From positions 905-64,904 of the forward strand of contig CAYMLT010000001.1 of NCBI GenBank assembly GCA_964391265.1: a DNA stretch of 64,000 bases. Direction: 5' to 3'. The notes under the pieces were generated by a model. That model ran no database searches. It was not told the origin of the DNA and worked only from the letters and a program-made list of their open reading frames with translations. The position numbers were made by a program, and so were the translations under genes. Below, one piece after another: positions 13,282-53,747 of the stretch. Within the stretch, counting starts at the first letter, position 1. The number at the start of each line of letters is the position of its first letter. This stretch comes from an uncultured archaeon. GTDB lineage: Archaea > Asgardarchaeota > Thorarchaeia > Thorarchaeales > Thorarchaeaceae.

Positions 13282-15216
13282 CTATTTCTCCTCCTGCTTA
13301 ATTGCACCTTGTGGACAGACGGATACACATGTTCCACATAAGTTACAAAGTGTTTCATCTATCACGGCTTGTTGAGTTTCAGTATCTTGGTACATTGCGG
13401 GACATGACAATCGATTAAGGCAACGTTTGCACGCATTACATACTTCAGTGTCAACATAGTACTTTGGAGGGTATTCACCGCTTTTTCGCCGATCAGCAGC
13501 AGTAAGAAGTGCACATGGGTCCCTTGATATTAAAACCGCAGGAGACTTATTCTCTCGAGTCCACTTGACCATCTCACGTATTTCTTTAACAAGCTCAGCC
13601 ATTGATTCAAAGGTTTTGATAGTCTTTACATACTTGACACCTAACCCCTTGGAAACCTCTTCGATATCGATTGGTGGGACTTCCTCTCGCATACCAGTAA
13701 TCCCAGTTCCAGGATGGGGTTGATGACCGGTCATGGCCGTCGTCCGATTATCAAGGACAACAAGATTTACGGCGTGTTTATTGTATACCGCATTCACCAA
13801 ACCAGGAAGTGCGGAAGCAAAGAATGTGCTATCCCCAACTGATGCCACGATATCTTGACCAGTAACTTGGGCTAGACCACAAGCAGTTGTAATTGACGAT
13901 CCCATGTCAAAGAGAATGTCTGCTGTTTCCAGTGGTGGTGCAATGCTAAGAGTATAACATCCAATATCTGAGGGATATATCGCCTTGCCTCTGGTTGCAG
14001 TCCGAATAGCAAAATAGGTTGCTCGGTGAGGACAGCCTGCGCATAATAATGGAGGCCGAGGAGGTATCTCGGGAATTTCTTCAGCTTGTTTATCTATATC
14101 CTTCCAGTTAATACGTGTATTACGATTAGTAATTTTGCTTAGTGCTTCTATTACGATTCGGGGGCTATACTCACCCACTCGGGAGAAGTATCCCTGTTCT
14201 TTCCCGAGAATACTAACACTAACTTCATTCAATTGAGCAAGTCTTCTTGCGTGTGTTTCCAAGAATGGTTCCAGTTCTTCAACAACTGCAATACGTTTGT
14301 GGCGTTTTAGGAATTCAACCAAACTCTTTTCGGGAACAGGGTGAGTTATTCCAAGTTTGTAAATCTCAGCCTCTAGCTCTAAGTGATCAAGCGCTTCAAC
14401 CACATAATTGTAAGCTACGCCGCTAGTAAGTATTCCAAGGTCACCACGGCCTTCAAAGAAATTAAGTGGGCTAGTTTCAGCTATCTCTTTGGCTTTCTCA
14501 ATCTTGCCTAATAATTTAGGATGTAGCTTGCGAGCGACCGCCGGAATGGGGACGAGTTGAAATGGATCCTTTTCAAATTCAACAGATTCCGGTCGCCCCG
14601 TGATAATGTCTAGTACAACAGGTGCTCGTGTGTGATTTACACGAGTTGTTGTTCTTAGTAAAACAGGCAGTTCAAGTTTTTCAGAGAGTTCAAAGGCTTC
14701 ATGAACCATATCCTTTGCCTCGGCGGGGTCAGCGGGTTCTACCATTGGCATATTACCCATGAGAGCATAGTAACGACTATCATTCTCATTTTGTGAGCTC
14801 CACATACTGGGGTCATCGGCAACTACGATAACCATACCTGCACGAACTCCGATGTAAGCCAAAGAAAAGAATGGATCAGCTGCAACATTCAATCCTGGAC
14901 CTTTACATACCATCATAGATCTTACACCTGCAATTGCGGCAGCTCCTGAAACTTCAAGGGCTACTTTCTCGTTAGTGCTGAATTCAAAGTAAAAGTTAGG
15001 AATGTGAGGTGCCATGAATGTTAGATTGTTACCAATCTCACTACTGGGGGTGCCAGGATATAGTGCAACAAGTCGAACACCAGCCTCTAACACACCTCGA
15101 GCTATTGCCTCATTAGCCAGAAGAAGTACTTTCTTCCCAGGAGCATCTTCTAGTAGATCTTTTGGTTTGGTCATTGGGAGTCCTCCACGTCCCGTCGTGG
15201 ACAAATTGCCCGGCAC
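13282..15216 (-). CDS. iorA: Indolepyruvate ferredoxin oxidoreductase alpha subunit
   Basis: 644 aa with a TPP-binding region and two 4Fe-4S ferredoxin CxxCxxCxxxCP motifs at the C-terminus. Confidence 0.9.
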   Translation of the reverse strand: MPGNLSTTGRGGLPMTKPKDLLEDAPGKKVLLLANEAIARGVLEAGVRLVALYPGTPSSEIGNNLTFMAPHIPNFYFEFSTNEKVALEVSGAAAIAGVRSMMVCKGPGLNVAADPFFSLAYIGVRAGMVIVVADDPSMWSSQNENDSRYYALMGNMPMVEPADPAEAKDMVHEAFELSEKLELPVLLRTTTRVNHTRAPVVLDIITGRPESVEFEKDPFQLVPIPAVARKLHPKLLGKIEKAKEIAETSPLNFFEGRGDLGILTSGVAYNYVVEALDHLELEAEIYKLGITHPVPEKSLVEFLKRHKRIAVVEELEPFLETHARRLAQLNEVSVSILGKEQGYFSRVGEYSPRIVIEALSKITNRNTRINWKDIDKQAEEIPEIPPRPPLLCAGCPHRATYFAIRTATRGKAIYPSDIGCYTLSIAPPLETADILFDMGSSITTACGLAQVTGQDIVASVGDSTFFASALPGLVNAVYNKHAVNLVVLDNRTTAMTGHQPHPGTGITGMREEVPPIDIEEVSKGLGVKYVKTIKTFESMAELVKEIREMVKWTRENKSPAVLISRDPCALLTAADRRKSGEYPPKYYVDTEVCNACKRCLNRLSCPAMYQDTETQQAVIDETLCNLCGTCVSVCPQGAIKQEEK

Positions 15217-15286
15217 TTTTACAGTGTATCAATATTGTGGTAGTATACACAGTTGTATTAGCTGTAATACATGTCACCATGTTCTT

Positions 15287-15300
15287 GGAACACGTGTTCC
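15287..15300. promoter_or_regulatory. 14-bp perfect palindrome GGAACACGTGTTCC
   Basis: Contains the recurrent GAACACGTGTTC 12-mer. It flanks the left ORB of the candidate origin and lies about 70 bp upstream of iorA. Confidence 0.35.
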
Positions 15301-15324
15301 AGTGTGTATTGCCCAGCTAATACA

Positions 15325-15344
15325 CCCCTCGATTTCCACTGGAG
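15325..15344 (-). repeat. Origin recognition box (ORB), inverted copy
   Basis: The reverse complement reads CTCCAGTGGAAATCGAGGGG. Confidence 0.5.
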
Positions 15345-15465
15345 AATTAAAAATGAAGAGATTATGGGCGTGTATTATAATAATAATTAAAAATGGAGAT
15401 AAATACTGGCTATTAATTTGTATATTTATACTTTTGTATTTTTAGCTAGTTTGAATCTGCATTAT

Positions 15466-15486
15466 TTCGAGTGGAAACAAGGGGGT
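15466..15486 (+). repeat. Origin recognition box (ORB), direct copy
   Basis: TTCGAGTGGAAACAAGGGGGT. Confidence 0.5.
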
Positions 15487-15521
15487 TGCACTGGTTTTGG
15501 AACACGTGGCCGCATTTTTAT

Positions 15522-15812
15522 CTATTTTATCTCAGCAGCCACTTCATAGATTATGAGATCCATAATATCCGAATACTCATCGAATAGCATATCAAATACT
15601 CCCCGGTGTTCAGCAGGAACGAGAATTGCAGAATCAGCAACTGCTTTGGAACCTGGACACTCTTCGATTAGTCCAACCTTCCGTTTCTCTTTGACACCAT
15701 ACTTTGTCTTCCAAGAATATGTAAACCCATATAGCTCCTTGGTAAAAGAAACCCGTTTAGCATTTGACTGACGTGCCTGCCTACAATCATAAAGATAGAG
15801 ATATTGTGTCAT
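15522..15812 (-). CDS. Hypothetical small protein
   Basis: 96-aa ORF. A palindrome sits 20 bp upstream of its start. Confidence 0.25.
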   Translation of the reverse strand: MTQYLYLYDCRQARQSNAKRVSFTKELYGFTYSWKTKYGVKEKRKVGLIEECPGSKAVADSAILVPAEHRGVFDMLFDEYSDIMDLIIYEVAAEIK

Positions 15813-15832: not shown

Positions 15833-15846
15833 AGAACACATGTTCT
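15833..15846. promoter_or_regulatory. 14-bp perfect palindrome AGAACACATGTTCT (variant of the recurrent motif) in a divergent promoter region
   Basis: Lies between the 15812 minus-strand start and the 15946 plus-strand start. Confidence 0.3.
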
Positions 15847-19267: not shown

Positions 19268-19587
19268 CTATTTTTCACCATTTCTGTTTTTATCACAGGA
19301 TACAATACTAATCTTATTCACAACAATCCTTGTTCACACTTCAAATAAGTGTGAGTATGTGAATCATGTATATCAAGGTAAGTGGAAGATAATCCCTACA
19401 TAGCTATTCAGGACTCATATCAGCTGTACATCCTGTGTTAGCACCTTCTATGGAAGCTATGTCCGAAACTAAGGACTATGACCGCTTATTTCGCAAAAAA
19501 AAAGCTTTTTTCCTTTTACTTCGATATTCACTAAACTATGATGATTGTGAATGAGTATTTCAAGATATCATAACTCTAATTGCCTAG

Positions 19588-19608
19588 TTCCAGTGGAAAC
19601 GAAGGGGT
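19588..19608 (+). repeat. Third ORB element in a 490-bp AT-rich intergenic region
   Basis: TTCCAGTGGAAACGAAGGGGT, the best match of the three to the canonical ORB. The surrounding region carries a poly-A tract and repeated ATTCACAA/TTGTGAAT motifs. Confidence 0.45.
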
Positions 19609-19756
19609 GGCTTTATTCACAAGGCATATCGGGACTATGCTTGCTTCATTCAACTATCACAGGTTTTATGATAACTCTTTTACAATGCTCATTCACAATA
19701 ATGGCGCCATTCACAACATTTCACTGTGAATCATGTTAATTTGTTTTCATCAGGAA

Positions 19757-20770
19757 TCATATTGAACATGGTAGCAAGTAGTCTGTGTTGCTTTCTCCCA
19801 AAACAAGCTGCAACCAGTTTCGACCATCACGATGGTTTACTTTCTCGAGTGTTCCTCTTGCAGTCGCACACATTCCTTCATGCACATGCTCAGTATACCG
19901 ACCTCTATAGCTTACTACACTCACAAGATCAGGAATCTCTTGGCATTTAACAATGTATTCACAGGGTGTAAATATCGCTTGTGTATCATCTAATACCTCG
20001 AATTTTAGAACACGTGTTCCTATAGATTCGAATCTAAGGTCATCATACGTGAATTCCATTTCCTCTGGAGTTTTTACTATTCGGATGAAAAATTCTTGAC
20101 TATCGAAAATCCCCTGAAGCAACTTATTGCTTTCAATGGATCTGAGTGTTTCCAAATCTGGATTATTTGAACCCCATCTAAACTGTGTATGTTGCAGTAA
20201 ATACTTCCCCGAATATCGTTCCAGCCCCCTAATCGTTTCACTGTTTTTCTCCAAACCTTGATACAGCATTTTGCCTGCGTTTTCGCCGTATACTACTAAA
20301 TCAATATCAGAACTCTCCGTTGCAAGACCAACAAGCTGTGATCCGGTAACACCAATTGAATTCCATGGAATCCCAAAAGCATCAACTATGGACTCTGCCA
20401 ATTCAATGGTCGTGTGTTGAAGATTACTCAGATGCCTGCCCCGGTCCCTAATCTGACCAAGTGCATCAATGGGATTTAATATGATATCTACACAATCGAG
20501 TGGTACTACTTGTAATACACGGTTGTGTCTATCATCAAAACTTAGATAGTGAGGGTAATTCTCTCTAAGGTAGACTTCACGGTCCTTCAACGGGTAGATT
20601 TTCTTGTATGCAATACCATCTTCCGATTTTCTATCACCAGATGTATCAATCACATACCGAAGATACGCTATGTATTGACGTTCGGGATGTAAATTCCCTT
20701 TAATTTCAAAAACCAAACTTTCGTTTGTTATGAGGAAGTAGCCTTCAATTGGATCGTCCATCAACTTCAT
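19757..20770 (-). CDS. Pol-beta-superfamily nucleotidyltransferase domain protein
   Basis: A central GSQLVGLATESSDIDLVVYG motif (GS-x9-DxD). N- and C-terminal domains are unknown. An internal GAACACGTGTTC palindrome lies at 20008-20019. Confidence 0.45.
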   Translation of the reverse strand: MKLMDDPIEGYFLITNESLVFEIKGNLHPERQYIAYLRYVIDTSGDRKSEDGIAYKKIYPLKDREVYLRENYPHYLSFDDRHNRVLQVVPLDCVDIILNPIDALGQIRDRGRHLSNLQHTTIELAESIVDAFGIPWNSIGVTGSQLVGLATESSDIDLVVYGENAGKMLYQGLEKNSETIRGLERYSGKYLLQHTQFRWGSNNPDLETLRSIESNKLLQGIFDSQEFFIRIVKTPEEMEFTYDDLRFESIGTRVLKFEVLDDTQAIFTPCEYIVKCQEIPDLVSVVSYRGRYTEHVHEGMCATARGTLEKVNHRDGRNWLQLVLGESNTDYLLPCSI

Positions 20771-40861: not shown

Positions 40862-41965
40862 CTAAAGCAAAGTTACATCTTCCTTAGCACGAATCCAGTA
40901 ATCGAACCGTCCAATTGGAATCCACCCACCATACCCCAGGTCGCTAATCCAGAGACCTCTGACACCTTGATATGTAGCGACCATAATTGGAACTCCTTTT
41001 GATACGTCTGCCTTTTCAGCCATGACTCTGAGTTTTGTCATATCGGTTTCACCCCAATAGGGACGGTCCCTGAGGATGTCCTGTAAGAGGGGAAAGATGT
41101 TCCATGTTGAAGAGAACGGGAGTTGGAGCAAATTAACGTTCATCTCAGAACTCCCAATTCTGGATTGGAATACTAACCAGATGGCTGATGGATGCCTCTC
41201 TTTCTTTTCTTTCACTGGGATTATCCGACCAAAGAGGACATCAGACGGACCATTCTTCTGGATGACTTCTCCAAGATTTCTGACCTTTCTTGATAATGTG
41301 TCTAGAAGCCTTCCTCTATTCAAAACGGATTTGCCAGTCTTGTGCTGTGCATGATAGAGTGGTGAAAAACCCAACGTCATCAATTGCCAAGGTAGAATGA
41401 ACTTCCAGAGTCTCTCAAGAAGACCGGTTGAGGGTTGTGAGATGTTGTTTTGTTCGAGTGCTGCAAGTAGTAAGAAGAAGAACTGATTACCTGTTAGCAA
41501 TAGGATTCCTGGGTACCTAAGAGAGAGTTTATACATTGCATCAGATGATTGTGGGGTCAGACCTTGGGGCGTCTTTAGTCTGAGAGGTCTGAGTGCTTTC
41601 CAGATTAGTTTTGTCTTTGAATAGTTCTCCAAAAGCTGAGAAACATCCCTCAAGACATGAAAGAGTTCGCGTCCCTTTTTCTTCCTGATTTTCTTAGGAT
41701 CTAGGATGACAGAGAGCTGATTCAAGAGTCCCTTCCATCGGTTGCTTTCACGGGACCTTAGAAGTCTGGTTGCTGCTCTCAAGCCATTCAGTTCCTTGCG
41801 AACCATGTCTGCAAGAAAGATAGACACATCGGTGCCCTGTGGAGTAAGGTCCGTCTTCTTGACCATGAAATCGCTCGTATTGTCGCTGCAAAGACTGTCT
41901 GGTTCTGTGAACAACATCAAGTACAGAAAATCTTCTTCGAGGACCTCAGGAGCTTTCAGGCTCAT
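40862..41965 (-). CDS. Hypothetical protein (367 aa)
   Basis: Long ORF. Its first roughly 40 codons are antisense to the TnpB remnant, so the real start is probably an internal Met. Confidence 0.3.
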   Translation of the reverse strand: MSLKAPEVLEEDFLYLMLFTEPDSLCSDNTSDFMVKKTDLTPQGTDVSIFLADMVRKELNGLRAATRLLRSRESNRWKGLLNQLSVILDPKKIRKKKGRELFHVLRDVSQLLENYSKTKLIWKALRPLRLKTPQGLTPQSSDAMYKLSLRYPGILLLTGNQFFFLLLAALEQNNISQPSTGLLERLWKFILPWQLMTLGFSPLYHAQHKTGKSVLNRGRLLDTLSRKVRNLGEVIQKNGPSDVLFGRIIPVKEKKERHPSAIWLVFQSRIGSSEMNVNLLQLPFSSTWNIFPLLQDILRDRPYWGETDMTKLRVMAEKADVSKGVPIMVATYQGVRGLWISDLGYGGWIPIGRFDYWIRAKEDVTLL

Positions 41966-42292
41966 GCAGGGTCGAAAGACCTATCGTACAATCTGAGTTC
42001 AAACCTCTGGGGAAAAGTCATCGACACGGTCAGATACATGCGAGAGTCCCTTGGACATAACAAATACTCAGTCTGGACAGTGAATCCCCAGTATATCTCT
42101 CAGACCTGTCATGTGTGTGGGGAGAGAGGGAAGCGAGTAGAAGATGAAACCTCCACCACTGAGAGAAAAGGTGGAGAGTACTTCTACTGTGTAAGGTGCG
42201 ATGAGCATTTCCATGCCGATGTGAATGCGGCTCGAAACATTATTCATGTACAAGATAACCTATCCAGTGTCGCTCCTGGACGTGCAGCTTGA
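41849..42292 (+). pseudogene. tnpB: TnpB (IS200/IS605 OrfB) C-terminal remnant: RuvC-II/III plus zinc finger
   Basis: Stop-free frame IFFEDL...VNPQYISQTCHVCG...YCVRCDEHFHADVNAARNI. The N-terminal roughly 250 aa are absent or scrambled upstream. Confidence 0.7.
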
Positions 42293-42414
42293 TATTCAAG
42301 TTTGTACAACTTACAATGAACGACAGGACGGAAGCTTCCCGCTAACCTGCCAAAAGACCAATCATATTAGCAATAATCTTAAATCACAGCCCAAACCTGA
42401 ATGTTTCCAGAATT

Positions 42415-42486
42415 GCGATCGTTGTCTAGTGGTTATGATGTAGGCTTCCCAAGCCTATGACCCGGGTTCGAGTCCCGGCGATCGCA
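42415..42486 (+). tRNA. tRNA-Gly (anticodon CCC), with CCA encoded at 42487-42489
   Basis: Acceptor GCGAUCG/CGAUCGC, anticodon loop UUCCCAA, T-arm CCGGG-UUCGAGU-CCCGG. Confidence 0.85.
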
Positions 42487-42590
42487 CCATTACTTCTAGT
42501 AGAGGGTTGGGCGAACCTAAATTCATGTCCAATATCTGCAATTCTTGAAATCCAAGCTTTCAACCCGTGACGGAATCCAGAGAATGAGTT

Positions 42591-42619
42591 CCGCGGGAGT
42601 TCAAATCCCGGTGGCCGCA
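42591..42619 (+). other. tRNA-like 3' fragment (T-arm plus acceptor 3' strand UGGCCGC plus discriminator A)
   Basis: CGGGA-GUUCAAA-UCCCG hairpin, then UGGCCGC-A-CC. The acceptor strand is exactly complementary to the GCGGCCA fragment at 39169. Confidence 0.35.
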
Positions 42620-42840
42620 CCGACTTCTTGTTTTCAGATGACATATAAGCCCAGGCTTATGACATGTCATGGCGAGCGATGAATGTCATGACCCCGATGA
42701 GTCGATATGACAATGACTTGGATCTTGAGTTAGGAGCTTGCCACTATTACTTTCGGCCACCTCTACCACCAGTGTGCGATTAATAGTACAATTCACACAA
42801 TCCTTTTAAGTTGCCTCTGACTTGATTACTTTGGTTTGGG

Positions 42841-44046
42841 ATGCCAAGAGACTATGTGGAAGACGAACTCAGTCGCAAGAGCGTATTCAAATCAGAACAC
42901 TATTTGTCGATTGATTATGTTCCAGAGAATCTACCCCATAGGGAAGGTGAGCTGAGAACATTAGCCCAAAATTTCAAGACTCTTATCACATCCCCTGGTC
43001 GCACAAGTCAGAAGTTCATAATCGAAGGTCCTGTAGGTACTGGAAAAACCGCTGTAGCAAAACGTTTTGCGGAACAAATGGTCCAAGCTGCTCAACGTCG
43101 TGATATTCGTTTCCACAAGCTGCATATCAATTGCAGAGTGAACAAGAGTGCTTATCTAGTCTATCTCAAGATTCTACGACAATTCAAGCCAAAATTTCCA
43201 CGAAGAGGGCATTCTCCAGAAGAACTTCTGCAAATAATTGTTGAAATATTAGAGGCTGAGGATCGATATCTCCTTCTAATTTTGGATGAGCTTGACTATT
43301 TCATAAAACAGAAAGGGGGAGATATTCTGTACAATCTCACTCGACTCATGGATGACCAGCTCAACGCACAACAAAGACTATCCATGATTGGCGTTGGTCG
43401 CCATATCCCTCTTGATAGTAGTATGTTTGATCCTAGTACACTGAGCACCCTGCAAAGGAATATTATCCGATTCGAGAAATATACTGATTCTGAATTGAAT
43501 GACATACTTGTTGAAAGAAACAAGATGGCATTTGTAGAGGGTGCGGTGATGCCTGAAGCATTGCAGTTAGTATGTGAGATAGCATCCGAACGAGGTGATG
43601 CAAGGTACGCAATAGAATTACTCTGGCGCGCAGGTAAACAGGCAGACAGATTGGAATCTTCTGAAATAATTCCAGATTATGTCAGAAAGGCCAAGGCCGA
43701 CACACACCCCGAAATAAGAAAGGAAGTCCTTGAAAGCTTACCTAAACAGAACCAGCTTCTACTTCTTGCAGCTGCTAGAAAACTGAAGGAAGGCCAAAGT
43801 GCGTATGTAACAATTGGAGAGGTAGAAGAAATGTATCGTTCAGTTTGTGAGGAGTACAATTTCGAATCGCGAGCTCATACTCAGGTTTGGGAATGGGTCC
43901 AAGATTTGAATGCTCATGGGGTAATCGATACAAAACGTTCTGGTGTTGGGCAAAGAGGCCAGACAACCCTGCTGGGTCTTTCTGACATCCCTGCTGACCT
44001 GCTCGAACAGTACCTACTTGGCATACTAGATAAAGGAAGGTTGTAA
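42841..44046 (+). CDS. orc1: Orc1/Cdc6 replication initiator
   Basis: LSIDYVPENLPHREGEL, Walker A GPVGTGKT, Walker B LILDELD, sensor 2 GDARYAIELL, and a C-terminal winged helix. Confidence 0.9.
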   Translation: MPRDYVEDELSRKSVFKSEHYLSIDYVPENLPHREGELRTLAQNFKTLITSPGRTSQKFIIEGPVGTGKTAVAKRFAEQMVQAAQRRDIRFHKLHINCRVNKSAYLVYLKILRQFKPKFPRRGHSPEELLQIIVEILEAEDRYLLLILDELDYFIKQKGGDILYNLTRLMDDQLNAQQRLSMIGVGRHIPLDSSMFDPSTLSTLQRNIIRFEKYTDSELNDILVERNKMAFVEGAVMPEALQLVCEIASERGDARYAIELLWRAGKQADRLESSEIIPDYVRKAKADTHPEIRKEVLESLPKQNQLLLLAAARKLKEGQSAYVTIGEVEEMYRSVCEEYNFESRAHTQVWEWVQDLNAHGVIDTKRSGVGQRGQTTLLGLSDIPADLLEQYLLGILDKGRL

Positions 44047-44050
44047 GGCA

Positions 44051-44335
44051 ATGAATCCAGAATCATACCCACGAATTCCTATTGAAGAATTATTTTCATC
44101 CAGAGGTAGAATGAAAGTACTGAAAGAGCTTGCAGAAGAAAAAGAATTGCTTATTTCAGAAATATGCAGACGAGTCAGTCTTAATCACAGCACAACAAAA
44201 ACACACCTTCGAGCATTGGTCAAATCGGGACTTGTAGAAGAGAAAATCCATGGTCGCATTAAGATGTATCGCTACAGAACGGAAGATATTCGAGCCCGTT
44301 CATTAAAGAATTTTCTTGACCTCTGGGATTCATGA
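44051..44335 (+). CDS. Small winged-helix DNA-binding protein cotranscribed with orc1
   Basis: 94 aa with a wHTH pattern (ELLISEICRRVSLNHSTTKTHLRALVKSGLV). Starts 4 bp after the orc1 stop. Confidence 0.45.
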   Translation: MNPESYPRIPIEELFSSRGRMKVLKELAEEKELLISEICRRVSLNHSTTKTHLRALVKSGLVEEKIHGRIKMYRYRTEDIRARSLKNFLDLWDS

Positions 44336-45179
44336 AGGAGAATCATCCTTGATAAATTACATAGCGCGTTTATTCTATCTTGGAGCATCATACCATGGGT
44401 CACAATGGCAGCCTAATGTACGTACTATTCAAGGAGAGTTAATAGATGCACTAAACTCATGGAGTGGTCAAGAGTATAACACTGAATCTGTTATACTGTC
44501 TGGTCGGACCGATAAAGGAGTAAATAGCATAGGTCAAGTTGTTAGATTTGATTCTAGAGAACCTCTTAACCTTGACAAGGTCAATGCGTATCTTCCAGAA
44601 GACATTGTCCTATGGGCACATTCAGAAGTTCCTGTTGCCTTCAATCCACGATATGATATTCTTTCTCGGCATTACAGGTACTATTTGAACAATGCAAATT
44701 TTTCTATGGATTTGGAAAGAATCAAAAAAGGAGCAAATTTGCTAATCGGAACTCACAACTATGCACTTCTTTCAAAACCAGATACAGGACGCAACACTCG
44801 AACCACAATCCTGAATGTATCCGTTAGGTCAACTAACGACACACTGGTTTTCGATTTCTTCGGAGTCAGATTCCTTTGGAAGCTAGTGCGAAAGTCTGTG
44901 ACGTTACTAAAGTGGATTGGCTTAAACCTCTATTCTCCAAGTATAATATCTGATTTACTTACTAGCAAGGAAAGAATCCCAGGGGGTATCGATCCCGCAC
45001 TTCCTGAGGGACTTGTTCTAGTAGAAGCAATTGTCCCGATAAGAATGAAACCAAGTATGAATGCTTTAAAGCTGATACGAAAAGTAGTGAATAGCAATCT
45101 CGGTTATTTCAGGAGATCTACAGCAATGCTTGAAGGGATTAACGCCGACTATCTTTTTGACCGAGTGCCCCTTTACTAA
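44316..45179 (+). CDS. truA: tRNA pseudouridine synthase A (TruA/Pus3 family)
   Basis: YLGASYHGSQWQPN, the TruA signature; 287 aa. Confidence 0.7.
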   Translation: MTSGIHEGESSLINYIARLFYLGASYHGSQWQPNVRTIQGELIDALNSWSGQEYNTESVILSGRTDKGVNSIGQVVRFDSREPLNLDKVNAYLPEDIVLWAHSEVPVAFNPRYDILSRHYRYYLNNANFSMDLERIKKGANLLIGTHNYALLSKPDTGRNTRTTILNVSVRSTNDTLVFDFFGVRFLWKLVRKSVTLLKWIGLNLYSPSIISDLLTSKERIPGGIDPALPEGLVLVEAIVPIRMKPSMNALKLIRKVVNSNLGYFRRSTAMLEGINADYLFDRVPLY

Positions 45180-46362
45180 CTCCAAGCCAAACCGCAAAAT
45201 CTTTTCGCTGGTTAGGGGCAATATCAACAATCACATCTATTGTACGAATACACTTTTCATATGCCCTTTCTCTAGAAACTCCCATAACCTCTGCTGCAAC
45301 AGAAATCACCTCTCCCTTCTTCTCCTTCCGTTTTCTCCCTTTCCATATAAGAAGGGACCAAACAGGTTGTGTGTACTCCACTTTTCGGTAAGGTGTCTTG
45401 CTTCTACTTGATACCATATTTGAGGAAAGAAAATCATATACATATGAAAGAAGTTTCCAGTTTTGTTGACGCATTATTCTTCCTAGGTACAAATCTGCTT
45501 TAGATAGTGCATCCAAACCCACTTCTAACTCTGAAGGGCTGGACAAGTGGAGGTGAATGTTTTCCTCTAGCCATGATAACAAAGTATCATGATCAACATC
45601 CGATTCAGAAACAATCATTCTTGCAGCATCAGGATCAGCTAGCATAAACAAACGACGAAGGGTCTGGGTTACATTCCTTCTTACATCTCTTCTACCCAAG
45701 CCCTCGTCATCTTCCTTCAATTGTCCCTCTATAATAGCTTCCAAATCCGATATTGCAGCCCTAAGATCCCCTCGAGAGCGCGTAACTATATTTTCCAATG
45801 CTTCATTTGACACTTGTCTAGGGTTATCTTCTACAATTCTTCGTAGAACTTTGATTGCCGAATCATTATCTATGACATCAAACTGGAATACTTGACAACG
45901 TTTCATTATATCTTTAAGCTTGGGACTCTCGTAATCATTAGCAGTCATAACAATAGGGTGTGCAGACACATCGATAATCCTGAGAATTGCATTAATGCCA
46001 CCCCTGTCACTTGTTCCCGATAATCCATCGACCTCATCAAGTAATATTACACGGGGTCTTCCATCCAAAGTATGTTGCATTGCAGATCGTGACACTTGTA
46101 TTTCGATGCTGCCTTTGTTGCGTTTATCACTCGCATTAAACTCAACCAACTCAAAACCGAGATCGTTTGCAATAGCCCCCACCACGGCAGTCTTTCCAGT
46201 TCCAGGAGGCCCAACAAGTAGAACAGCCCTCTTTCTTGGCGTTCCCACGCTCCAAGATTTCATCCAATTTACAAAACCTTGGACAATATCTTCATTCCCC
46301 ACCAATTCACGTATACTACTTGGACGATATTTTTCTGGCCAAGGAAGATTTCGTTTAGTCAT
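45139..46362 (-). CDS. rfcL: Replication factor C large subunit
   Basis: [15 protein letters not shown], and a long C-terminal tail; overlaps rfcS by 1 nt. Confidence 0.85.
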   Translation of the reverse strand: MTKRNLPWPEKYRPSSIRELVGNEDIVQGFVNWMKSWSVGTPRKRAVLLVGPPGTGKTAVVGAIANDLGFELVEFNASDKRNKGSIEIQVSRSAMQHTLDGRPRVILLDEVDGLSGTSDRGGINAILRIIDVSAHPIVMTANDYESPKLKDIMKRCQVFQFDVIDNDSAIKVLRRIVEDNPRQVSNEALENIVTRSRGDLRAAISDLEAIIEGQLKEDDEGLGRRDVRRNVTQTLRRLFMLADPDAARMIVSESDVDHDTLLSWLEENIHLHLSSPSELEVGLDALSKADLYLGRIMRQQNWKLLSYVYDFLSSNMVSSRSKTPYRKVEYTQPVWSLLIWKGRKRKEKKGEVISVAAEVMGVSRERAYEKCIRTIDVIVDIAPNQRKDFAVWLGVSKGALGQKDSRR

Positions 46363-47318
46363 TAGATATCCTGTCCTAGTGCAACGTGTGCAAACAAAGC
46401 AGCTAGTTGCACCTCACCATCAGCTCCTTCAGCTACTCGGAATTCTACTTCTGCTGTTCTTTCAAGGATAGTTTGTTTATTGTTCATGCTGATTTCCAAA
46501 CCGTATATCTCCCTGTGAATCTGTCTTATCAAGTCAAGAGGAGCAACGCCCTCTTGAGAAATCAAGACTCTTAGCATACCAAGAGCTTGATCGAAGTTAC
46601 CAGCAATGGCGGTATCTAATAATAATCGGATTCTTTCTGGATCTGCCCTACCAGATATCGCAAAGACTGTGGTGTCGGTTACTACTTTTGCTGAAGATGA
46701 TGCAGCCTGCAGAAGGTTAATCGCTACACGCATATCACCATTGGCCAAGTAGAGAATGGAATCTCTTCCTTTTGGATTGAGTTTGACTCCTTCTTCATTT
46801 GCAACATATTCAAGCCTTTCAGCAATATCTTCTTCACTCAGGCGAGCAAACTTGAAGACTGCACATCTTGATTGAATGGGTGGAATAATTCTGCTTGAGT
46901 AATTACAAATCAAAATCATTCTGCATGAAGAGGCATATGATTCCATTGTCCTTCTCAATGCATGTTGTGCGTCATTTGTAAGATGGTCTGCTTCATCCAA
47001 AACAAGAATTTTGAATGGTGCGCCACCAGCAGGTAACGATCTAGCAAAGGATTTGATTTGGTTTCTAACAACATCTATGCCACGCTCATCACTTGCATTA
47101 AGTTCCATAAAGTTTCTTTCAAAAAACTCGCCGAACAAATCTCTTGCCAAGGCTAATCCTGCTGTGGTTTTTGCAGTTCCCGGGGGGCCTGCAAAAAGAC
47201 AATGAGGTAAGGTTTTCTTCTCTACAAATTTGGCAAGTCTTTCGACAATAATGTTTTGACCTACGATTTCAGTTAGGGTTCGCGGTCTATGTTTCTCAGT
47301 CCAGAGATCAATTTCCAT
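46362..47318 (-). CDS. rfcS: Replication factor C small subunit
   Basis: WTEKHRP, GPPGTAKTT, DEADHL, SRC motif. Start trimmed to the second Met. Confidence 0.85.
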   Translation of the reverse strand: MEIDLWTEKHRPRTLTEIVGQNIIVERLAKFVEKKTLPHCLFAGPPGTAKTTAGLALARDLFGEFFERNFMELNASDERGIDVVRNQIKSFARSLPAGGAPFKILVLDEADHLTNDAQHALRRTMESYASSCRMILICNYSSRIIPPIQSRCAVFKFARLSEEDIAERLEYVANEEGVKLNPKGRDSILYLANGDMRVAINLLQAASSSAKVVTDTTVFAISGRADPERIRLLLDTAIAGNFDQALGMLRVLISQEGVAPLDLIRQIHREIYGLEISMNNKQTILERTAEVEFRVAEGADGEVQLAALFAHVALGQDI

Positions 47319-47477
47319 TTGGAAGTACCATCCAGAATAGCTGAGGCAAATTTCCACTCTCAGCCAAACGCCTTAATGGTTTACCTCGTTTGAATCTTAA
47401 AAGCTTGTTTTTCAAGAGATTCCAATGCTTTAGTCGATAGTAAGGGCTTTATCAGTATGAGCATCAAGACAGAATAA

Positions 47478-48044
47478 GTGTGGTCTATGATACGACTGAG
47501 CAATACAACAAGTGAAATTGTTGAACGATCTCAAATGGAATTCTTGAATCACAATAGAAGGTGTGTGTTTGTAAAGGACACTCCAGAGATAACTATTGGT
47601 GGGGAAAAAATCGGACCATTTACTTCCACATCCCAAGTGGATTTGCCAAACTGGGCAATCGAGAAACTTGTGGCTCATGGAGTTGCCGAGCTGGCCCAAG
47701 ATGAGGACTTGGAATCATTAGAAAATCTCCAAAACATCTCAAGAAATGAAGAAGGTAGCTCACAGCTTCAATCCCTTCACCCTCTAGTTTATTCAGCAAT
47801 TAGTAGGAGAATTCAGAATCTCCAAAGTGACAAGTCCTCATTGGATGAACGCCTATACGACGAGATTGAGAAATTGCAGCGAATAGTACCTATGCTTCTT
47901 GAGTCACGTCTATCCAAAATCATTCGTGTTGCGAAATCTGGCGCATTGCCGGATAAGCGAAAGGACATGGCATTAGAAGAACGGTGGTTCTGTGAAGAGT
48001 TAGCCAATTTAGTTTCGGACTGGCGAAAATCGCTCTTCAACTAA
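47478..48044 (+). CDS. gins23: GINS subunit (Gins23-like: beta-rich domain first, helical domain second)
   Basis: Domain order B then A, and a position immediately upstream of mcm, the classic gins23-mcm operon. Confidence 0.55.
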   Translation: MWSMIRLSNTTSEIVERSQMEFLNHNRRCVFVKDTPEITIGGEKIGPFTSTSQVDLPNWAIEKLVAHGVAELAQDEDLESLENLQNISRNEEGSSQLQSLHPLVYSAISRRIQNLQSDKSSLDERLYDEIEKLQRIVPMLLESRLSKIIRVAKSGALPDKRKDMALEERWFCEELANLVSDWRKSLFN

Positions 48045-48159
48045 GGCCGCTGGTCATACAGGTGCTTAAATATGACCTGAGTAGTCTAATTCATGAAGCA
48101 CAGGCAGATGCTCGGCCGATTGCATACACTTACAACACAATTACGAGAGGCAAACACAT

Positions 48160-50247
48160 ATGTCCGGCTACGAGGGAGGTGCGCAAGAACGATTCGAAGA
48201 ATTCTTGCGGACGCACAAGGATGAGCAAGGAAGCTTGGTTTATTGGTCAAAAATTCAACGATTTTCTATAGACGGAGCTACCTCTCTAAACATTGATTTT
48301 AAGGATATGACCACCTTTGATAATGTTGTTTTTAGCACGTTGGCAAAAGAGTCCCCATCCCAATTCCTAGATATGCTTGACTCCGTTCTCAGGTCCGTTC
48401 TGCGAACAGAAGACCCAGATTATATTGATGGACTTGATGAAAGCCTAATCAAGGTAAGAATAATCAATTACGTAAGTAAGACGACTCATGTACCTTTACG
48501 AGCGATTAGATCACGTCATATTGGAAAATTGATCCACATCAGTGGTATCATGATGCGTGCAAGTGAAGTAAAGCCACTGCTGGTTAATGCAACTTTCAAG
48601 TGTAGAAGATGTGGTGAACTTATTCTACAAACCCAAGAAGATGGACGCTATATGGAACCGGACCAGTGTCCTGTTTGTGGCAAGAAAACACCCGTGAGTT
48701 TGATTCCGGAACAATCAAAGTTCCGTGACTGGCAGAAAGTAAGAATACAAGAGTCTCCTGATGAGCTCCCTCCTGGTTCAATGCCTCGTTCAGTTGATGT
48801 GATACTGGAAGGTGATATAGTTGACATTTCCCGACCTGGGGATCTTGTAAAGGTAACTGGAATCCTGCTAACAACACCTGATTTTGCAAGAAGGGGCGGC
48901 AAGCTAGCAACATTCAATGTATATATTCAAGCAAATGGTGTTGAAATCGCTGAAAAAGAGTATGAGGAGTTGGAACTATCCGAAGACGATAAAGAAGAAC
49001 TCCAAAAGCTGGCCAATGACCCTTTTGTGCATAGACGAATTTATGCCTCAATAGCACCATCAATTCAGGGACATGAAAGAATTAAAGAATCAATTGCATT
49101 GCTTCTCTTCGGAGGAGTTGGAAAAACACTTCCTGATGGAACCCGACTGCGTGGACGTTCAAATATATTGATGATTGGCGATCCTGGAACAGGTAAAAGC
49201 CAGATACTAAAATTCATTTCAGGCCTTGCATCAAGGAGTCTATACACTTCCGGAAAAGGAACTACCGCAGCTGGCCTAACTGCTGCCGTAGTTCATGATA
49301 CAGATACCGGAGCAATGACTCTTGAAGCAGGAGCCCTTGTTCTAGCTGATCAAGGAATTGCATGTATAGATGAATTCGACAAAATGGATCCAAATGACAG
49401 AACGGCTATACATGAGGCTATGGAACAGCATACAGTAAGCATTGCGAAAGCTGGCATAGTCGCTACACTCAATGCCCGAACTTCTATATTGGCTGCCGCA
49501 AATCCAACGTTAGGAAGGTATGAACCATCACTATCTGTTCAAGAGAATATCAAATTACCATTTACAATTTTATCCAGATTCGATTTGACTTGGATTCTTG
49601 TTGATACAGTTGAACCGGAGCGCGATCGTGAAATAGCACAATTCATCCTAGGTATGCATCAAACGCAAAAAACGCCAGTAGAAGCAAAAACACCCCCTAT
49701 TCCTAAAGATTTTCTTAAGAAGTACATTGGTTATGCGAACAGATACGCTGAACAACCACAATTGACTACTGAAGCTAGTAAGATAATAGAAAATTTCTAT
49801 GTTGAGTTGCGAAAACAAGCAGAGGGAGGGGCAGGTCCAGTACCCATCACAGCTAGGCAATTAGAAGCACTGGTGCGTCTTGCAGAAGCTCGTGCTAAGA
49901 TGGCCCTCCGTCCAAAAGTAATAGAAGAAGATGCTCAAGCTGCAATAGAGCTTGTGGAAGCCTCTCTAAGGATGGTGGCTTATGATAGCGTAACTGGTAA
50001 AATCGACATTGATCGCTATATTTCTCCGATGAGTGCTTCCCAACGCGGTGACTCGGATAAAATTCTCAAGGTTATGAAAGATATGGAAGATGCTGGCACC
50101 TCAGTGGTTAATGAAGAGGAGCTACTTCGTAAAGTGGAGGGCATGGGTTTATCCCGGGATAGTGCTGAAAAAATCATTGCAAAATTGCATGATGAAGGCA
50201 TTCTGTACAATCCTGCACCGGGCAAGTGGAGCCGAGTCCAGAGCTAA
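48160..50247 (+). CDS. mcm: MCM replicative helicase
   Basis: Zinc finger C-x2-C-x18-C-x2-C, Walker A IGDPGTGKSQ, Walker B CIDEFDKM, arginine finger SRFDL. 695 aa with no intein. Confidence 0.9.
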   Translation: MSGYEGGAQERFEEFLRTHKDEQGSLVYWSKIQRFSIDGATSLNIDFKDMTTFDNVVFSTLAKESPSQFLDMLDSVLRSVLRTEDPDYIDGLDESLIKVRIINYVSKTTHVPLRAIRSRHIGKLIHISGIMMRASEVKPLLVNATFKCRRCGELILQTQEDGRYMEPDQCPVCGKKTPVSLIPEQSKFRDWQKVRIQESPDELPPGSMPRSVDVILEGDIVDISRPGDLVKVTGILLTTPDFARRGGKLATFNVYIQANGVEIAEKEYEELELSEDDKEELQKLANDPFVHRRIYASIAPSIQGHERIKESIALLLFGGVGKTLPDGTRLRGRSNILMIGDPGTGKSQILKFISGLASRSLYTSGKGTTAAGLTAAVVHDTDTGAMTLEAGALVLADQGIACIDEFDKMDPNDRTAIHEAMEQHTVSIAKAGIVATLNARTSILAAANPTLGRYEPSLSVQENIKLPFTILSRFDLTWILVDTVEPERDREIAQFILGMHQTQKTPVEAKTPPIPKDFLKKYIGYANRYAEQPQLTTEASKIIENFYVELRKQAEGGAGPVPITARQLEALVRLAEARAKMALRPKVIEEDAQAAIELVEASLRMVAYDSVTGKIDIDRYISPMSASQRGDSDKILKVMKDMEDAGTSVVNEEELLRKVEGMGLSRDSAEKIIAKLHDEGILYNPAPGKWSRVQS

Positions 50248-50286
50248 GTATTCCTAGCCAGATGAAATCTGTGGAGTGGAAGAGAA

Positions 50287-52506
50287 ATGCAACTGGATGA
50301 TTTATCAATTAATAGAAAAATAATTGACCTCCTGAAACAATCAGGAGTATCAACTCTATTTCCAACTCAAGAAAAGGCATTTGCGACTAAAGTACTTGAA
50401 GGCAAAAACCTCATACTAGCTGTTCCCACAAGTTCAGGAAAAACATTGGTTGCAGAGATATGCATGTTACGAAATATATTGGATGGATTGGGCAAGGCTC
50501 TATACCTTGTTCCTCTAAGATCTTTAGCACAAGAAAAGTACTTGGAATTCAAAAAATACGAAACCCTAGGCATAACAGTAGCAATGTCAATTGGCGACTA
50601 CGATTCAAAGGGAACCCAATTGGCTGAAGCAGATATAGTTATTCTAACAACCGAACGAGCTGACTCAATTATTAGACACAATCCCGATTGGATTCATGAA
50701 ATCGGCATAATTGTCGTTGACGAAATTCATCTGATAAACGATTCTTCCAGAGGTCCAACTTTGGAGATGGTTCTTGCCAAAATGCTTCAAATTTTGCCGG
50801 ATGTTCAAGTAGTAGGACTAAGTGCAACCATATCAAATGCTGATGAAATCGCAGGATGGCTCAATGCAGAGCTTGTAAAAGGCACTTGGCGACCTGTTGA
50901 GCTAAAAGAAGGAGTCTACCTTGATGGAGAAATCAAATTTGCTGACAGATCCACAAGGAGCATACCCCGAAAACGGAAGGATGAGATTGCAGATCTTATT
51001 TGTGACATTTTAGAAGAAAATGGACAGGTTCTAGTTTTTGTGTCATCTCGGAAATCAACGGTATCGGTATGCAAGAAGGTTGCTAGTTCTATTCGACCTT
51101 ACCTATCCAAGGAAAAACTGGGCTTGCTGAGTAGTGTTGCAAAACGCATTGCTAGCACTCCTACTATACCAGAGTCAACAAAGACACTCTCTCGGTTGGT
51201 AGGTATGGGTGTAGCATTTCATCATGCAGGCCTCACAAACCAAGAACGCAGCATAGTAGAGGATGGGTTTAAGAACGACCTTCTAAAAGTCATCGTTGCA
51301 ACACCAACTCTAGCCGCAGGTGTGAATCTCCCTGCACGCAGAGCAATAATTAGGGACTACCGTCGTTTTGAACAGAATCGCGGAAGCTATCCCATACCAG
51401 TCCTTGAATATAAACAGATGGCTGGTCGTGCTGGTCGCCCCAAGTATGATAAATATGGTGAAGCCATATTATTTTCCAGAAGCGAAAGCGAACAAGAATT
51501 CTTGCTTGAACACTACTTGTATTCAGAAACTGAATCAATTTCATCTAAACTGGCATCTCAGGAGGCTGTTCAGACACACATACTATCCGCAATCGCAACA
51601 GAGATGACAAAAAATCGAGCTGAAATTGATAAATTGATTGATGGAACATTCTTTTCATATCAATCCGAAAGATGGGAAATAGATCATCATGTAACCTCTG
51701 CTTTGGACTTCCTTGAACATGGCGACCTTATAGAAATAAATCAGGAACAAATGTATGCAACACCTCTTGGGCAACGGGCATCCAAGTTGTATATTCATCC
51801 ATATACAGCAATTATGCTGAGAGATGCCTTAACAAAAGCCCAAGAACTCACTGAGATAGGAATTCTACAATTAGTTGCCCATTGTCCTGACCAACCTCTT
51901 TCTTATGTAACACAATCCGAAGTGGAAGAAATTACCGCATATCTCGAAACTAATCATGACGAATTTCTGATGCCGATACCAGATAGTTGGGAAGACCCTG
52001 AAGGGTATTCCCGGCTATTGGCAGAAGTAAAAACAGCAAACATATTACAGGACTGGATTTCGGAAGTTTCAGAAACCAAGCTGACCGAACACCATAATGT
52101 TGGTATGGGCGATATCCATAGGTACGTAAGGTCCGCAGAATGGCTTCTGTACTCCGCAGCAGAAATAGCAAGAGTAGTGGGGGTACCTGAGCACATATCA
52201 ATCTTACAGACACTTAGATCTAGAGTAAAATACGGTATTAAGAACGAATTACTGGAGCTCGCAAATCTAAGAGGAATTGGTAGGGTTCGTGCAAGAATGA
52301 TGTATAATAACGGTATCAAAGGCTTAGTAGACCTCTATAATATATCACTGCCTAATCTTGCACGAATCCCAACTATTGGCACATCTATAGCAGCCTCGAT
52401 TAAAAGACAGCTAGGCTTAGATATAACAACTACTCCGGAAGATGATCCCGATGCATCCCACGGTCAAGATACTGATTCTCTTCAAACACTGCTGGAGGAT
52501 TTTTAG
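50287..52506 (+). CDS. hel308: Hel308/Hjm Ski2-like DNA helicase
   Basis: Q-motif FPTQ, motif I PTSSGKT, DEIH, and the C-terminal winged-helix, ratchet and HhH domains. 739 aa. Confidence 0.85.
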   Translation: MQLDDLSINRKIIDLLKQSGVSTLFPTQEKAFATKVLEGKNLILAVPTSSGKTLVAEICMLRNILDGLGKALYLVPLRSLAQEKYLEFKKYETLGITVAMSIGDYDSKGTQLAEADIVILTTERADSIIRHNPDWIHEIGIIVVDEIHLINDSSRGPTLEMVLAKMLQILPDVQVVGLSATISNADEIAGWLNAELVKGTWRPVELKEGVYLDGEIKFADRSTRSIPRKRKDEIADLICDILEENGQVLVFVSSRKSTVSVCKKVASSIRPYLSKEKLGLLSSVAKRIASTPTIPESTKTLSRLVGMGVAFHHAGLTNQERSIVEDGFKNDLLKVIVATPTLAAGVNLPARRAIIRDYRRFEQNRGSYPIPVLEYKQMAGRAGRPKYDKYGEAILFSRSESEQEFLLEHYLYSETESISSKLASQEAVQTHILSAIATEMTKNRAEIDKLIDGTFFSYQSERWEIDHHVTSALDFLEHGDLIEINQEQMYATPLGQRASKLYIHPYTAIMLRDALTKAQELTEIGILQLVAHCPDQPLSYVTQSEVEEITAYLETNHDEFLMPIPDSWEDPEGYSRLLAEVKTANILQDWISEVSETKLTEHHNVGMGDIHRYVRSAEWLLYSAAEIARVVGVPEHISILQTLRSRVKYGIKNELLELANLRGIGRVRARMMYNNGIKGLVDLYNISLPNLARIPTIGTSIAASIKRQLGLDITTTPEDDPDASHGQDTDSLQTLLEDF

Positions 52507-52513
52507 GCTCTCA

Positions 52514-53614: not shown

Positions 53615-53633
53615 ATAAATACCAATATATTTG

Positions 53634-53645
53634 GAACACGTGTTC
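53634..53645. promoter_or_regulatory. GAACACGTGTTC palindrome immediately upstream of the deacetylase gene
   Basis: Exact 12-mer, 20 bp from the GTG start codon. Confidence 0.35.
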
Positions 53646-53747
53646 TAAATGTTCATCATCGTTCAAAGTAAAAACAAACTGATGTTTGGTAATCTTTATC
53701 TTCAATTCGTATCAGCTTAGCGTCAGGCTATATAGGCTTTGAAATAT

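Follow-up and report, generated by a model that had tools for sequence, protein, structure and literature searches.

Where does DNA replication begin in a Thorarchaeota chromosome? Asgard archaea are the closest known prokaryotic relatives of eukaryotes, yet how they start DNA replication is essentially unknown. In the literature we could search, Asgard origins have only been guessed from cumulative GC skew, with several lineages said to show no bidirectional pattern at all (PMC9246712, PMC11291895), and we found no published origin defined at the level of origin recognition boxes (ORBs) for any Asgard archaeon. The question is raised here by a 225-bp non-coding cassette, 15287-15511, within a 64-kb stretch of a Thorarchaeota contig (CAYMLT010000001.1; this whole stretch of 64,000 nucleotides is referred to as the window). 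A sequence-only reading had proposed this element as a candidate origin, on the basis of an inverted ORB pair flanking an AT-rich segment, bracketed by palindromes and not adjacent to orc1. As described below, sequence analysis supports this proposal, although firing of the origin remains an inference.

Inspection of the window confirmed all four sequence elements. The first ORB, on the iorA side, lies on the minus strand: CTCCAGTGGAAATCGAGGGG at 15325-15344, or as a 22-mer at 15323-15344, CTCCAGTGGAAATCGAGGGGTG. The second, on the side of a small open reading frame (ORF), lies on the plus strand: TTCGAGTGGAAACAAGGGGGT at 15466-15486, or as a 22-mer at 15466-15487, TTCGAGTGGAAACAAGGGGGTT. In both, the G-string points away from the 121-bp spacer between them (15345-15465). 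The spacer is 78.5% A+T, rather than over 80% as originally claimed, but it is nevertheless the most AT-rich 121-bp stretch of the 64 kb and is the candidate duplex unwinding element. The bracketing palindrome, designated P1, is GGAACACGTGTTCC at 15287-15300 on the iorA side. On the other side, GGAACACGTGG at 15499-15509 belongs to a half-degenerate copy, GGAACACGTGGCC (15499-15511), which is a full palindrome in nearly all relatives. Since iorA starts at the ATG at 15174, the intergenic region is 15175-15521. The orc1 gene at 42841 is 27.4 kb away, consistent with the sequence-only reading.

To ask whether the ORBs could have arisen by chance, we scanned the window with a 20-mer degenerate ORB consensus of 18 specified positions. 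Three sites scored 18/18, the two above and a third at 19588-19609, whereas forty first-order Markov shuffles gave none at 17/18 or better. In contrast, the short core CCAGTGGAAA alone is not significant, with 9 hits against 4.5 expected. For the palindrome, GGAACACGTG with up to one mismatch gave 13 hits against 2.4 expected, and none of 100 shuffles reached 13. P1 is not private to this locus, however, as further copies lie at 720-733, 15834-15845, 20007-20020 and 53633-53646. The copy at 15834-15845 (GAACACATGTTC) lies between the small ORF and the divergent AlaDH-like gene and is conserved at -656 to -861 relative to the iorA ATG in most relatives. Across 122 copies, the extended P1 consensus is TTRGAACAYGTGTTCYAA, and P1 is more than 500-fold enriched around the module.

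The ORB sequence is canonical, with the dyad TCCAGTGGAAA followed by a G-string. Indeed, the consensus of 107 Thor sites, TTTCCAGTGGAAACGAAGGGGTG, matches the published archaeal consensus, CTTCCAGTGGAAACGAAAGGGGT (PMC4153887). A close match is to the predicted ORB pairs of Methanomassiliicoccales (Pelve et al. 2013, as tabulated in PMC4153887), in which the ORB is nearly identical, including the one-base-shorter spacer before the G-string (GTTCCAGTGGAAATGG-AGGGGTA there, TTTCCAGTGGAAACGA-AGGGGTG here). Those pairs are also inverted, and isolated ORBs also occur there away from orc1. However, they lie directly beside orc1/cdc6.1, and no flanking palindromes or inversions are described for them. 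A metagenome scan yielded 80 loci with the 20-mer, of which about a quarter carry an orc1 homologue, in most of them within about 1.5 kb of an ORB. Among the non-Thor inverted pairs, 11 of 13 point outward, as in the Thor module, and 2 point inward. Start-to-start spacing in the loci of other archaea is mostly 170-230 bp, against 139-149 bp (mostly 143-149) in Thor, and P1 is absent from all 78 non-Thor loci.

The module is fixed at the same locus, upstream of iorA, in about 38 species-level genomes. Both ORBs score at least 16/18 in 36 of 39 Thor sequences, with conserved position and orientation. Spacers in relatives are 119-129 bp (median 125) and 61-79% A+T, running about 10 points more AT-rich than the locus. 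The distal P1 keeps a fixed 13-nt gap (core-to-core) to the ORB. After normalization for orientation, two elements inside the spacer are at least 90% conserved: a 13-mer core, TTATCTCCATTTT (15390-15402, minus strand), and a TATA-box-like element, AAAAGTATAAATA (15423-15435, minus strand), about 21-22 nt upstream of it. The same alignment showed a second copy of the (C/T)TCCATTTT element, ATCTCTTCATTTTTAATT (15345-15362, minus strand), abutting the ORB. The 13-mer is specific to the module, with one exact copy per Thor locus and none elsewhere in 208 loci.

Comparison of relatives also revealed that the P1 sites are inversion breakpoints. Two loci, L029 and L032, differ by an inversion running exactly from P1 to P1, with breakpoints inside the palindromes. 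The whole cassette is inverted relative to iorA in at least five separate clades, representing at least five independent events, and the strand of the 13-mer flips together with the cassette. The cassette is therefore not tied to the orientation of either neighboring gene. This bears on an alternative in which the ORBs are operators, with Orc1 or a paralogue acting together with the P1-binding factor as a transcription regulator of iorAB and the neighboring genes, the AT-rich spacer being simply promoter DNA. Several features are in keeping with such a role: the module lies 149-313 bp upstream of the iorA ATG, the spacer contains a TATA-like box, P1 is conserved upstream of an HDAC-like gene and also occurs upstream of PAN, and Orc1-2 of Sulfolobales is a transcription regulator (PMC9738581). 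A regulatory role therefore cannot be excluded. However, we consider it unlikely, as the cassette, including its directional interior, has stayed conserved through repeated inversion, and the fixed spacing of two outward-facing ORBs is the origin layout rather than an operator layout.

The inversions also suggest an invertible promoter switch, or inverton, in which the P1 palindromes are recombination sites and the interior TATA-like promoter points either toward iorA or toward the small ORF. As in bacterial invertons such as fimS and hin, a short segment bounded by inverted repeats is found in both orientations, and the interior has a directional, promoter-like geometry. Nevertheless, in comparisons between genomes rather than within populations, orientation follows phylogeny, with whole clades of 5, 9 and 12 genomes sharing one state, so that flips are rare evolutionary events and not phase variation. 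Moreover, no recombinase domain was found among the neighbors scanned, and the putative transcript would meet a T-run within about 10 nt. Unlike these invertons, the segment carries initiator-binding sites rather than only a promoter, and this reading explains neither the two perfectly conserved ORBs nor the skew switch described next. It is accordingly very unlikely.

Strand composition was examined as strand-corrected third-codon-position GC (GC3) skew. The skew changes sign exactly at the module in 27 of 27 genomes tested, for genes of both orientations, and this is the strongest switch in the window (z = -4.3 at 15348). The module-side sign persists 39-60 kb away in another genome. This orientation-independent switch argues against the operator reading. 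Its bearing on origin function is less clear within the 64 kb or less that was read, as the polarity is that of a cumulative maximum, which is terminus-like under the bacterial rule (leading strand G-rich), and the magnitudes are unequal, about +0.045 on the iorA side against -0.12 to -0.15 on the other. In the window and two relatives the strong skew fades 26-32 kb away, near orc1/RFC. Calibration on orc1-adjacent ORB loci of other archaea leans to the same polarity as the Thor module but is weak (n = 7, five negative, two near zero or positive). Neither outcome that would have counted against the sequence-only reading, the lack of a skew inflection or randomly scattered ORBs, was observed in the sampled neighborhood.

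The polarity raises the possibility that the module is a replication terminus or polar fork barrier, at which Orc1 bound to the ORB pair, or the P1-bound factor, arrests forks, the true origin lying elsewhere, for example near the orc1-RFC-MCM cluster. Indeed, in the window and in loci L077 and L079, a switch of the opposite, origin-like sign lies near orc1 or the RFC-S/MCM boundary. However, this second switch is absent in loci L207 and L208, and no ORB or other repeat was found near orc1 or in the RFC/MCM intergenic region. ORB pairs around an AT-rich spacer are the defining origin element, and no ORB-based terminus is known. Moreover, an origin and a terminus only about 30 kb apart are implausible for a chromosome of about 3 Mb. 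A terminus is thus a remote possibility.

The presumed initiator that reads the ORBs is the Orc1-1-type protein encoded at 42841-44046 (plus strand), which heads an orc1-RFC-MCM-Hel308 cluster. It has Pfam Cdc6_C, Cdc6_lid and AAA domains and matches the NCBIfam ORC1-type equivalog NF001623 at 356.6 bits against a cut-off of 311. The best solved relatives are 1FNN, 2QBY_A and 2V1U. A TnpB remnant and a tRNA fragment initially suggested that this orc1 was part of an integrated element, but we rejected this because it is a core Thor gene, with orthologues sharing 70-92% identity, and sits in a conserved replisome cluster. Most characterized archaeal origins abut their initiator gene. In contrast, the module is 27.4 kb from orc1 in the window, about 23.7 and 23.2 kb away in two other genomes, and about 49 kb away, with the orc1 cluster inverted, in a fourth. 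No ORBs lie within 10 kb of orc1 in the window or in five other Thor genomes, so the three sites are the only ORBs in the sampled neighborhood.

This detachment would also fit a dormant or accessory origin, captured long ago from an extrachromosomal element and still bound by Orc1 but not the main start site. Origin capture appears to be a route to extra origins in Sulfolobales (Robinson and Bell 2007), and the module lies next to a Thor-specific small gene with a predicted Cas2-like fold. Against this, the module is under strong constraint on sequence and spacing across the genomes in which it is fixed, the ORB 20-mer and the P1 18-mer each have only 2 hits in 2.9 million viral contigs, and the strand-asymmetry switch may argue for current use. 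We therefore regard this reading as improbable.

Taken together, these results suggest, with moderate confidence, that the cassette is a chromosomal replication origin of this Thorarchaeota genome, of the archaeal oriC1 (Orc1-1/ORB) type, detached from orc1 and bracketed by palindromes. In the mechanism we infer from sequence alone, two Orc1 monomers bind the inverted ORBs, with their G-string (AAA+) sides facing outward and their dyad (winged-helix) sides facing the spacer. Together they would recruit MCM, encoded at 48160-50247, onto the roughly 125-bp AT-rich spacer, which would melt, with forks leaving in both directions. The flanking 18-bp P1 palindromes would bind an unidentified dimeric factor that delimits the origin. 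Because each P1 is its own inverted repeat, recombination between the two copies would have flipped the whole cassette several times, without harm, as expected for a symmetric, bidirectional element. If correct, this Asgard lineage still uses sequence-specific, Orc1-read origins of the general archaeal type, and the palindromic brackets, recurrent flipping and promoter-like core would be new accessory features for an archaeal origin.

The closest characterized system is the Sulfolobus/Saccharolobus oriC1, in which ORB3-DUE-ORB2 is bound by Orc1-1 and the ucm element is bound by UBP. In S. islandicus, oriC1 is a 130-bp ORB3-DUE-ORB2 unit in which both ORBs and an interior motif are essential (PMC12141716). 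Like the Thor module, oriC1 has two inverted ORBs flanking an AT-rich region of about 100-130 bp, a conserved short element inside that region, an Orc1-1-type initiator (the best solved relatives include S. solfataricus Orc1-1, 2QBY_A, E = 3e-48) and an additional sequence-specific site class. We infer that the interior core, a TATA-like box followed after about 21-22 nt by the 13-mer, plays an accessory role analogous in position to ucm. Any resemblance is functional analogy only. The Thor core is unique to the module while ucm has more than 300 genomic sites, and the extra motif class, P1, lies outside the ORBs. The Thor module is also not next to orc1, its third ORB is 4.1 kb away rather than within the origin, and recurrent cassette inversion is not reported for oriC1. 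The small ORF (15522-15812) is not supported as a UBP-like or other DNA-binding origin factor: its model is confident (pLDDT 90), but the best fold matches are Cas2 proteins at weak E-values (0.02-0.06), UBP is not among them, and a sequence search of solved structures gave no hit.

A more speculative and rather doubtful extension is that Thorarchaeota replicate from a self-contained, orientation-free cassette, detached from its initiator gene and bounded by palindromic sites for a still unknown factor that also serve as the recombination points that flip the origin. Here the AT-rich region would carry a built-in promoter-like core, a TATA box with a start site about 22 nt downstream, at TTATCTCC, running straight into a T-tract, which opens or primes the origin by abortive transcription. 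In this view the leading strand is C-rich, so that the skew rule is the reverse of the bacterial one.

The third ORB, TTCCAGTGGAAACGAAGGGGTG (19588-19609, plus strand), lies 4.1 kb from the pair, in a conserved 490-bp non-coding region full of ATTCACA repeats (19268-19756). A single conserved ORB sits upstream of a winged-helix-like gene in Thor and in non-Thor contigs. This looks regulatory and indicates, as do the isolated ORBs of Methanomassiliicoccales, that single ORBs occur in apparently non-origin contexts. The winged-helix assignment of the 210-aa gene next to the third ORB rests on sequence pattern and predicted secondary structure only: there is no Pfam, NCBIfam or solved-structure sequence match, the model has low confidence (pLDDT 62), and a fold search was uninformative. 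No Rfam match was found in the module, the third-ORB region or the orc1 upstream region apart from the tRNA. In the third-ORB region, RNAalifold pairs only the invariant inverted ATTCACA/TGTGAAT repeats, equally on both strands, and these are therefore DNA-level repeats.

The four sequence elements reported by the sequence-only reading are all present: the palindrome GGAACACGTGTTCC at 15287-15300, an ORB on the minus strand at 15323-15344 (CTCCAGTGGAAATCGAGGGGTG), an ORB on the plus strand at 15466-15487 (TTCGAGTGGAAACAAGGGGGTT), and a half-degenerate palindrome, GGAACACGTGGCC, at 15499-15511. To assess chance occurrence, we scanned the window with a 20-mer degenerate ORB consensus of 18 specified positions. 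The window holds exactly three perfect sites, the two above and a third at 19588-19609, whereas 40 Markov shuffles gave none at 17/18 or better. In contrast, the 10-mer core alone is not significant. The spacer at 15345-15465 is 78.5% A+T, slightly below the figure of over 80% in the sequence-only reading, but it is the most AT-rich 121-bp stretch in the 64 kb. The palindrome 10-mer is also strongly over-represented, with 13 hits in the window against 2.4 expected, and none of 100 shuffles reached 13.

The neighboring gene is iorA, whose closest relatives in a species-level genome collection are all Thorarchaeota, at 71-94% amino acid identity. iorA starts at the ATG at 15174, so the element lies between iorA and the stop codon of a 96-aa ORF (15522-15812, minus strand). 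This ORF encodes a Thor-specific protein that always lies next to the cassette and is flanked by copies of the palindrome. Its predicted fold is Cas2-like (pLDDT 90), although the best matches, which are Cas2 structures, have weak E-values; an invariant Asp is found at the end of strand 1. Between the cassette and the iorA start (15200-15285 and in relatives) are further conserved blocks, including palindromes of the form TATTACnnGTAATA placed a few bases after sites of the above palindrome (P1) and an invariant ACCACAAGACTGATACA about 50 bp before the ATG. These are probably iorA promoter or leader elements.

The ORB pair is conserved. In 36 of 39 Thor sequences, both ORBs score at least 16/18, sit at the same place upstream of iorA, and point outward. 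The spacer is 119-129 bp (median 125) and 61-79% A+T, about 10 points above each locus average. The iorA proteins in these genomes are only about 75-80% identical, so the noncoding elements are under strong constraint. After orientation normalization, the interior is conserved at 90% or more in three blocks: a TATA-like AAAAGTATAAATA; about 21-22 nt further on, the 13-mer TTATCTCCATTTT; and a second (C/T)TCCATTTT next to the far ORB. The 13-mer occurs exactly once per Thor locus and nowhere else in 208 loci.

The palindrome, here called P1, has the extended consensus TTRGAACAYGTGTTCYAA and brackets the ORB pair in virtually all relatives, with one junction fixed as P1, 13 nt, ORB. P1 occurs 118 times within 850 bp upstream of iorA in 38 loci, but only 3 times in the other 444 kb of those loci. 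Closer inspection showed that the interior is reversed in ten loci, and two close relatives, the loci designated L029 and L032, show how. Their flanks are collinear at 88-90% identity, whereas the segment from -348 to -96 relative to the iorA start is inverted at 80.8% identity; this is exactly P1 to P1 and includes both ORBs. On an iorA tree, the reversed state appears in at least five separate clades, while large clades are uniform. The cassette is therefore an autonomous unit that tolerates either orientation, and the palindromes are its recombination boundaries. The flips are rare evolutionary events, not phase variation. Because orientation follows phylogeny and no recombinase domain was found among the neighbors scanned, an inverton is a less likely reading of the cassette. 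The repeated inversion relative to iorA also weakens the proposal that the ORBs and P1 constitute an Orc1/P1 operator for iorA.

P1 is not exclusive to the candidate origin. Copies lie upstream of the PAN proteasome-ATPase gene (720-733) and about 20-85 bp upstream of an HDAC-like gene next to MCM/Hel308 (53633-53646). The HDAC-side copy is conserved in L077-L079, loci from at least two other Thor genomes (L077 20785; L079 20813). The most economical reading is that P1 is a binding site for an unidentified dimeric factor that is concentrated at the origin; the additional copies suggest a small regulon or a nucleoid-protein-like factor. Any role for P1, as for the interior core, is inferred. 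A further P1 palindrome (20007-20020) and, 40 bp away, an ORB-like dyad without a G-string (CTCCAGAGGAAATGG, minus strand) lie at 20007-20075, inside the coding region of the 337-aa nucleotidyltransferase-domain gene. This P1 copy is shared only with the closest relative, locus L001.

The Thor ORB consensus TTTCCAGTGGAAACGAAGGGGTG matches the archaeal consensus CTTCCAGTGGAAACGAAAGGGGT and also the Methanomassiliicoccales variant with the same one-base-shorter spacer (PMC4153887). A scan of metagenome contigs for the exact 20-mer returned 80 loci with G+C from 24 to 72%. About a quarter of these carry an orc1 homologue, in most of them within about 1.5 kb of an ORB. Only two of the 80 are Thor, and both show this same locus; P1 is absent from all the others. 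Among inverted ORB pairs in non-Thor loci, 11 point outward, as here, and 2 point inward. In S. islandicus, oriC1 is a 130-bp ORB3-DUE-ORB2 unit in which both ORBs and an interior motif (ucm) are essential, the ucm being bound by UBP, a nucleoid protein with more than 300 sites (PMC12141716). The Thor module has the same ground plan, and this origin-like geometry also weakens the operator reading.

The gene at 42841-44046 encodes an Orc1-1-type protein. It has the Pfam Cdc6 domains and passes the NCBIfam ORC1-type equivalog at 356.6 bits against a cutoff of 311. Its best solved relatives are 1FNN, 2QBY_A, and 2V1U, and it has 70-92% identical orthologues across Thor. It heads a conserved cluster (42841-53614) of orc1, pseudouridine synthase, RFC large subunit, RFC small subunit, a 185-aa gene, MCM, a Hel308-like helicase, and an HDAC-like gene; in the locus L208, the MCM gene carries an intein with a LAGLIDADG domain. 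Where both features lie on one contig, the distance from the module to orc1 is 27.4 kb in the window, about 23.7 kb in SHMX01000002.1, about 23.2 kb in JAFGAR010000088.1, and about 49 kb in CAYWJO010000005.1, where the orc1 cluster is inverted. No ORB lies within 10 kb of orc1 in any genome examined. The candidate origin is thus detached from orc1 but sits in the same neighborhood as the replisome genes.

Three other features were noted upstream of orc1. At 40862-42290, a 367-aa ORF with no family match lies next to a C-terminal TnpB-like zinc-ribbon fragment (…CHVCGERG…FHADVNAARNI…). Together they form an insertion upstream of tRNA-Gly and orc1 that is absent from L077 and L079 and is probably an IS200/IS605-type remnant. 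About 100 bp after the intact tRNA-Gly(CCC), at about 42584-42621, is a fragment resembling the 3' half of a tRNA (…GGGAGTTCAAATCCCGGTGGCCGCACC), which may be an old integration scar. Between tRNA-Gly and orc1, at about 42661-42731 and just upstream of orc1 in L077 and L079, lies a conserved element of about 70 nt with a closing stem GGCGAGC…GCTYGCC and repeated GATGA/ATGA boxes. It could be a small RNA of the C/D-box or k-turn kind, but it has no Rfam match.

To separate gene orientation from position, we measured G-C skew at third codon positions, expressed on one reference strand. In the window, the cumulative curve peaks at the end of iorA, and the strongest jump in a ±10-kb breakpoint scan is at 15348 (z = -4.3). 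To the right, genes of both orientations are C-rich on the plus strand (about -0.15) out to roughly 41-46 kb, whereas to the left the skew is weakly positive. The same switch is seen in 27 Thor loci. In locus orientation, genes upstream of the module (small-ORF side) have skews of +0.133 on the + strand and +0.107 on the - strand, and genes downstream (iorA side) have skews of -0.024 and -0.074, respectively. Third positions are saturated at these divergences, so the asymmetry is being maintained now. This maintained asymmetry, together with the tight conservation, speaks against a dormant captured origin, and the skew switch is a further argument against the operator reading.

The C-rich domain, about 26-32 kb in extent (15500 to about 41000-47000), is bounded sharply by the ORB module. 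In three sequences (the window, L077, and L079), the strong skew also ends near orc1 or the RFC-S/MCM boundary. However, that far boundary is absent in two other genomes; in the locus L207, the skew continues past that point. In the genome where the orc1 cluster is inverted and 49 kb away, genes 39-60 kb from the module still carry the module-side sign, while the skew of orc1 itself flips with its orientation. The polarity at the module is a cumulative maximum, which would be terminus-like under the bacterial rule, and the two sides are unequal. The alternative that the module is a terminus or fork barrier rests only on this rule. Seven orc1-adjacent ORB loci of other archaea lean to the same polarity (five negative, two near zero or positive; mean -0.06), but this is too weak to settle the rule. 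We conclude that the module is a boundary of a strand-asymmetric process, most simply replication, although the sign neither supports nor excludes an origin and the analysis was confined to 64 kb of this genome and 14- to 21-kb pieces of the others.

Taken together, the best-supported reading is a chromosomal origin of the oriC1 type. We hold this with reasonable but not high confidence. Nothing in these sequence data shows binding or firing; the operator, terminus, inverton, and dormant-origin readings each rank lower. In the literature searched, we found no description of ORBs or of a sequence-defined origin in any Asgard archaeon. The published statements found rest on cumulative GC skew only, and a recent study of Asgard replisome evolution deals with proteins, not origins. 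Origins of this type are already known, but in the literature searched none has been defined in this lineage. The features that vary here are the detachment from orc1, the palindromic brackets that double as inversion breakpoints, and the module-specific promoter-like core.

The third ORB, ORB3 (19588-19609), sits in a 490-bp noncoding region (19268-19756) that is highly conserved. This region holds about nine ATTCACA/TGTGAAT repeats, an invariant 23-mer, CAAATAAGTGTGAGTATGTGAAT, and an invariant GGCGCCATTCACA, and it lies upstream of a conserved 210-aa gene whose C terminus looks like a winged helix. There is no RNA structure beyond the DNA repeats and no Rfam match. Three non-Thor contigs of about 52% G+C (L113 150-1000, L142 550-1400, and L156 5500-6400) show the same unit, a single ORB and TTCACA-type repeats lying about 100-250 bp upstream of a homologue of that gene. 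This may be an Orc1-controlled promoter or a second origin-associated element.
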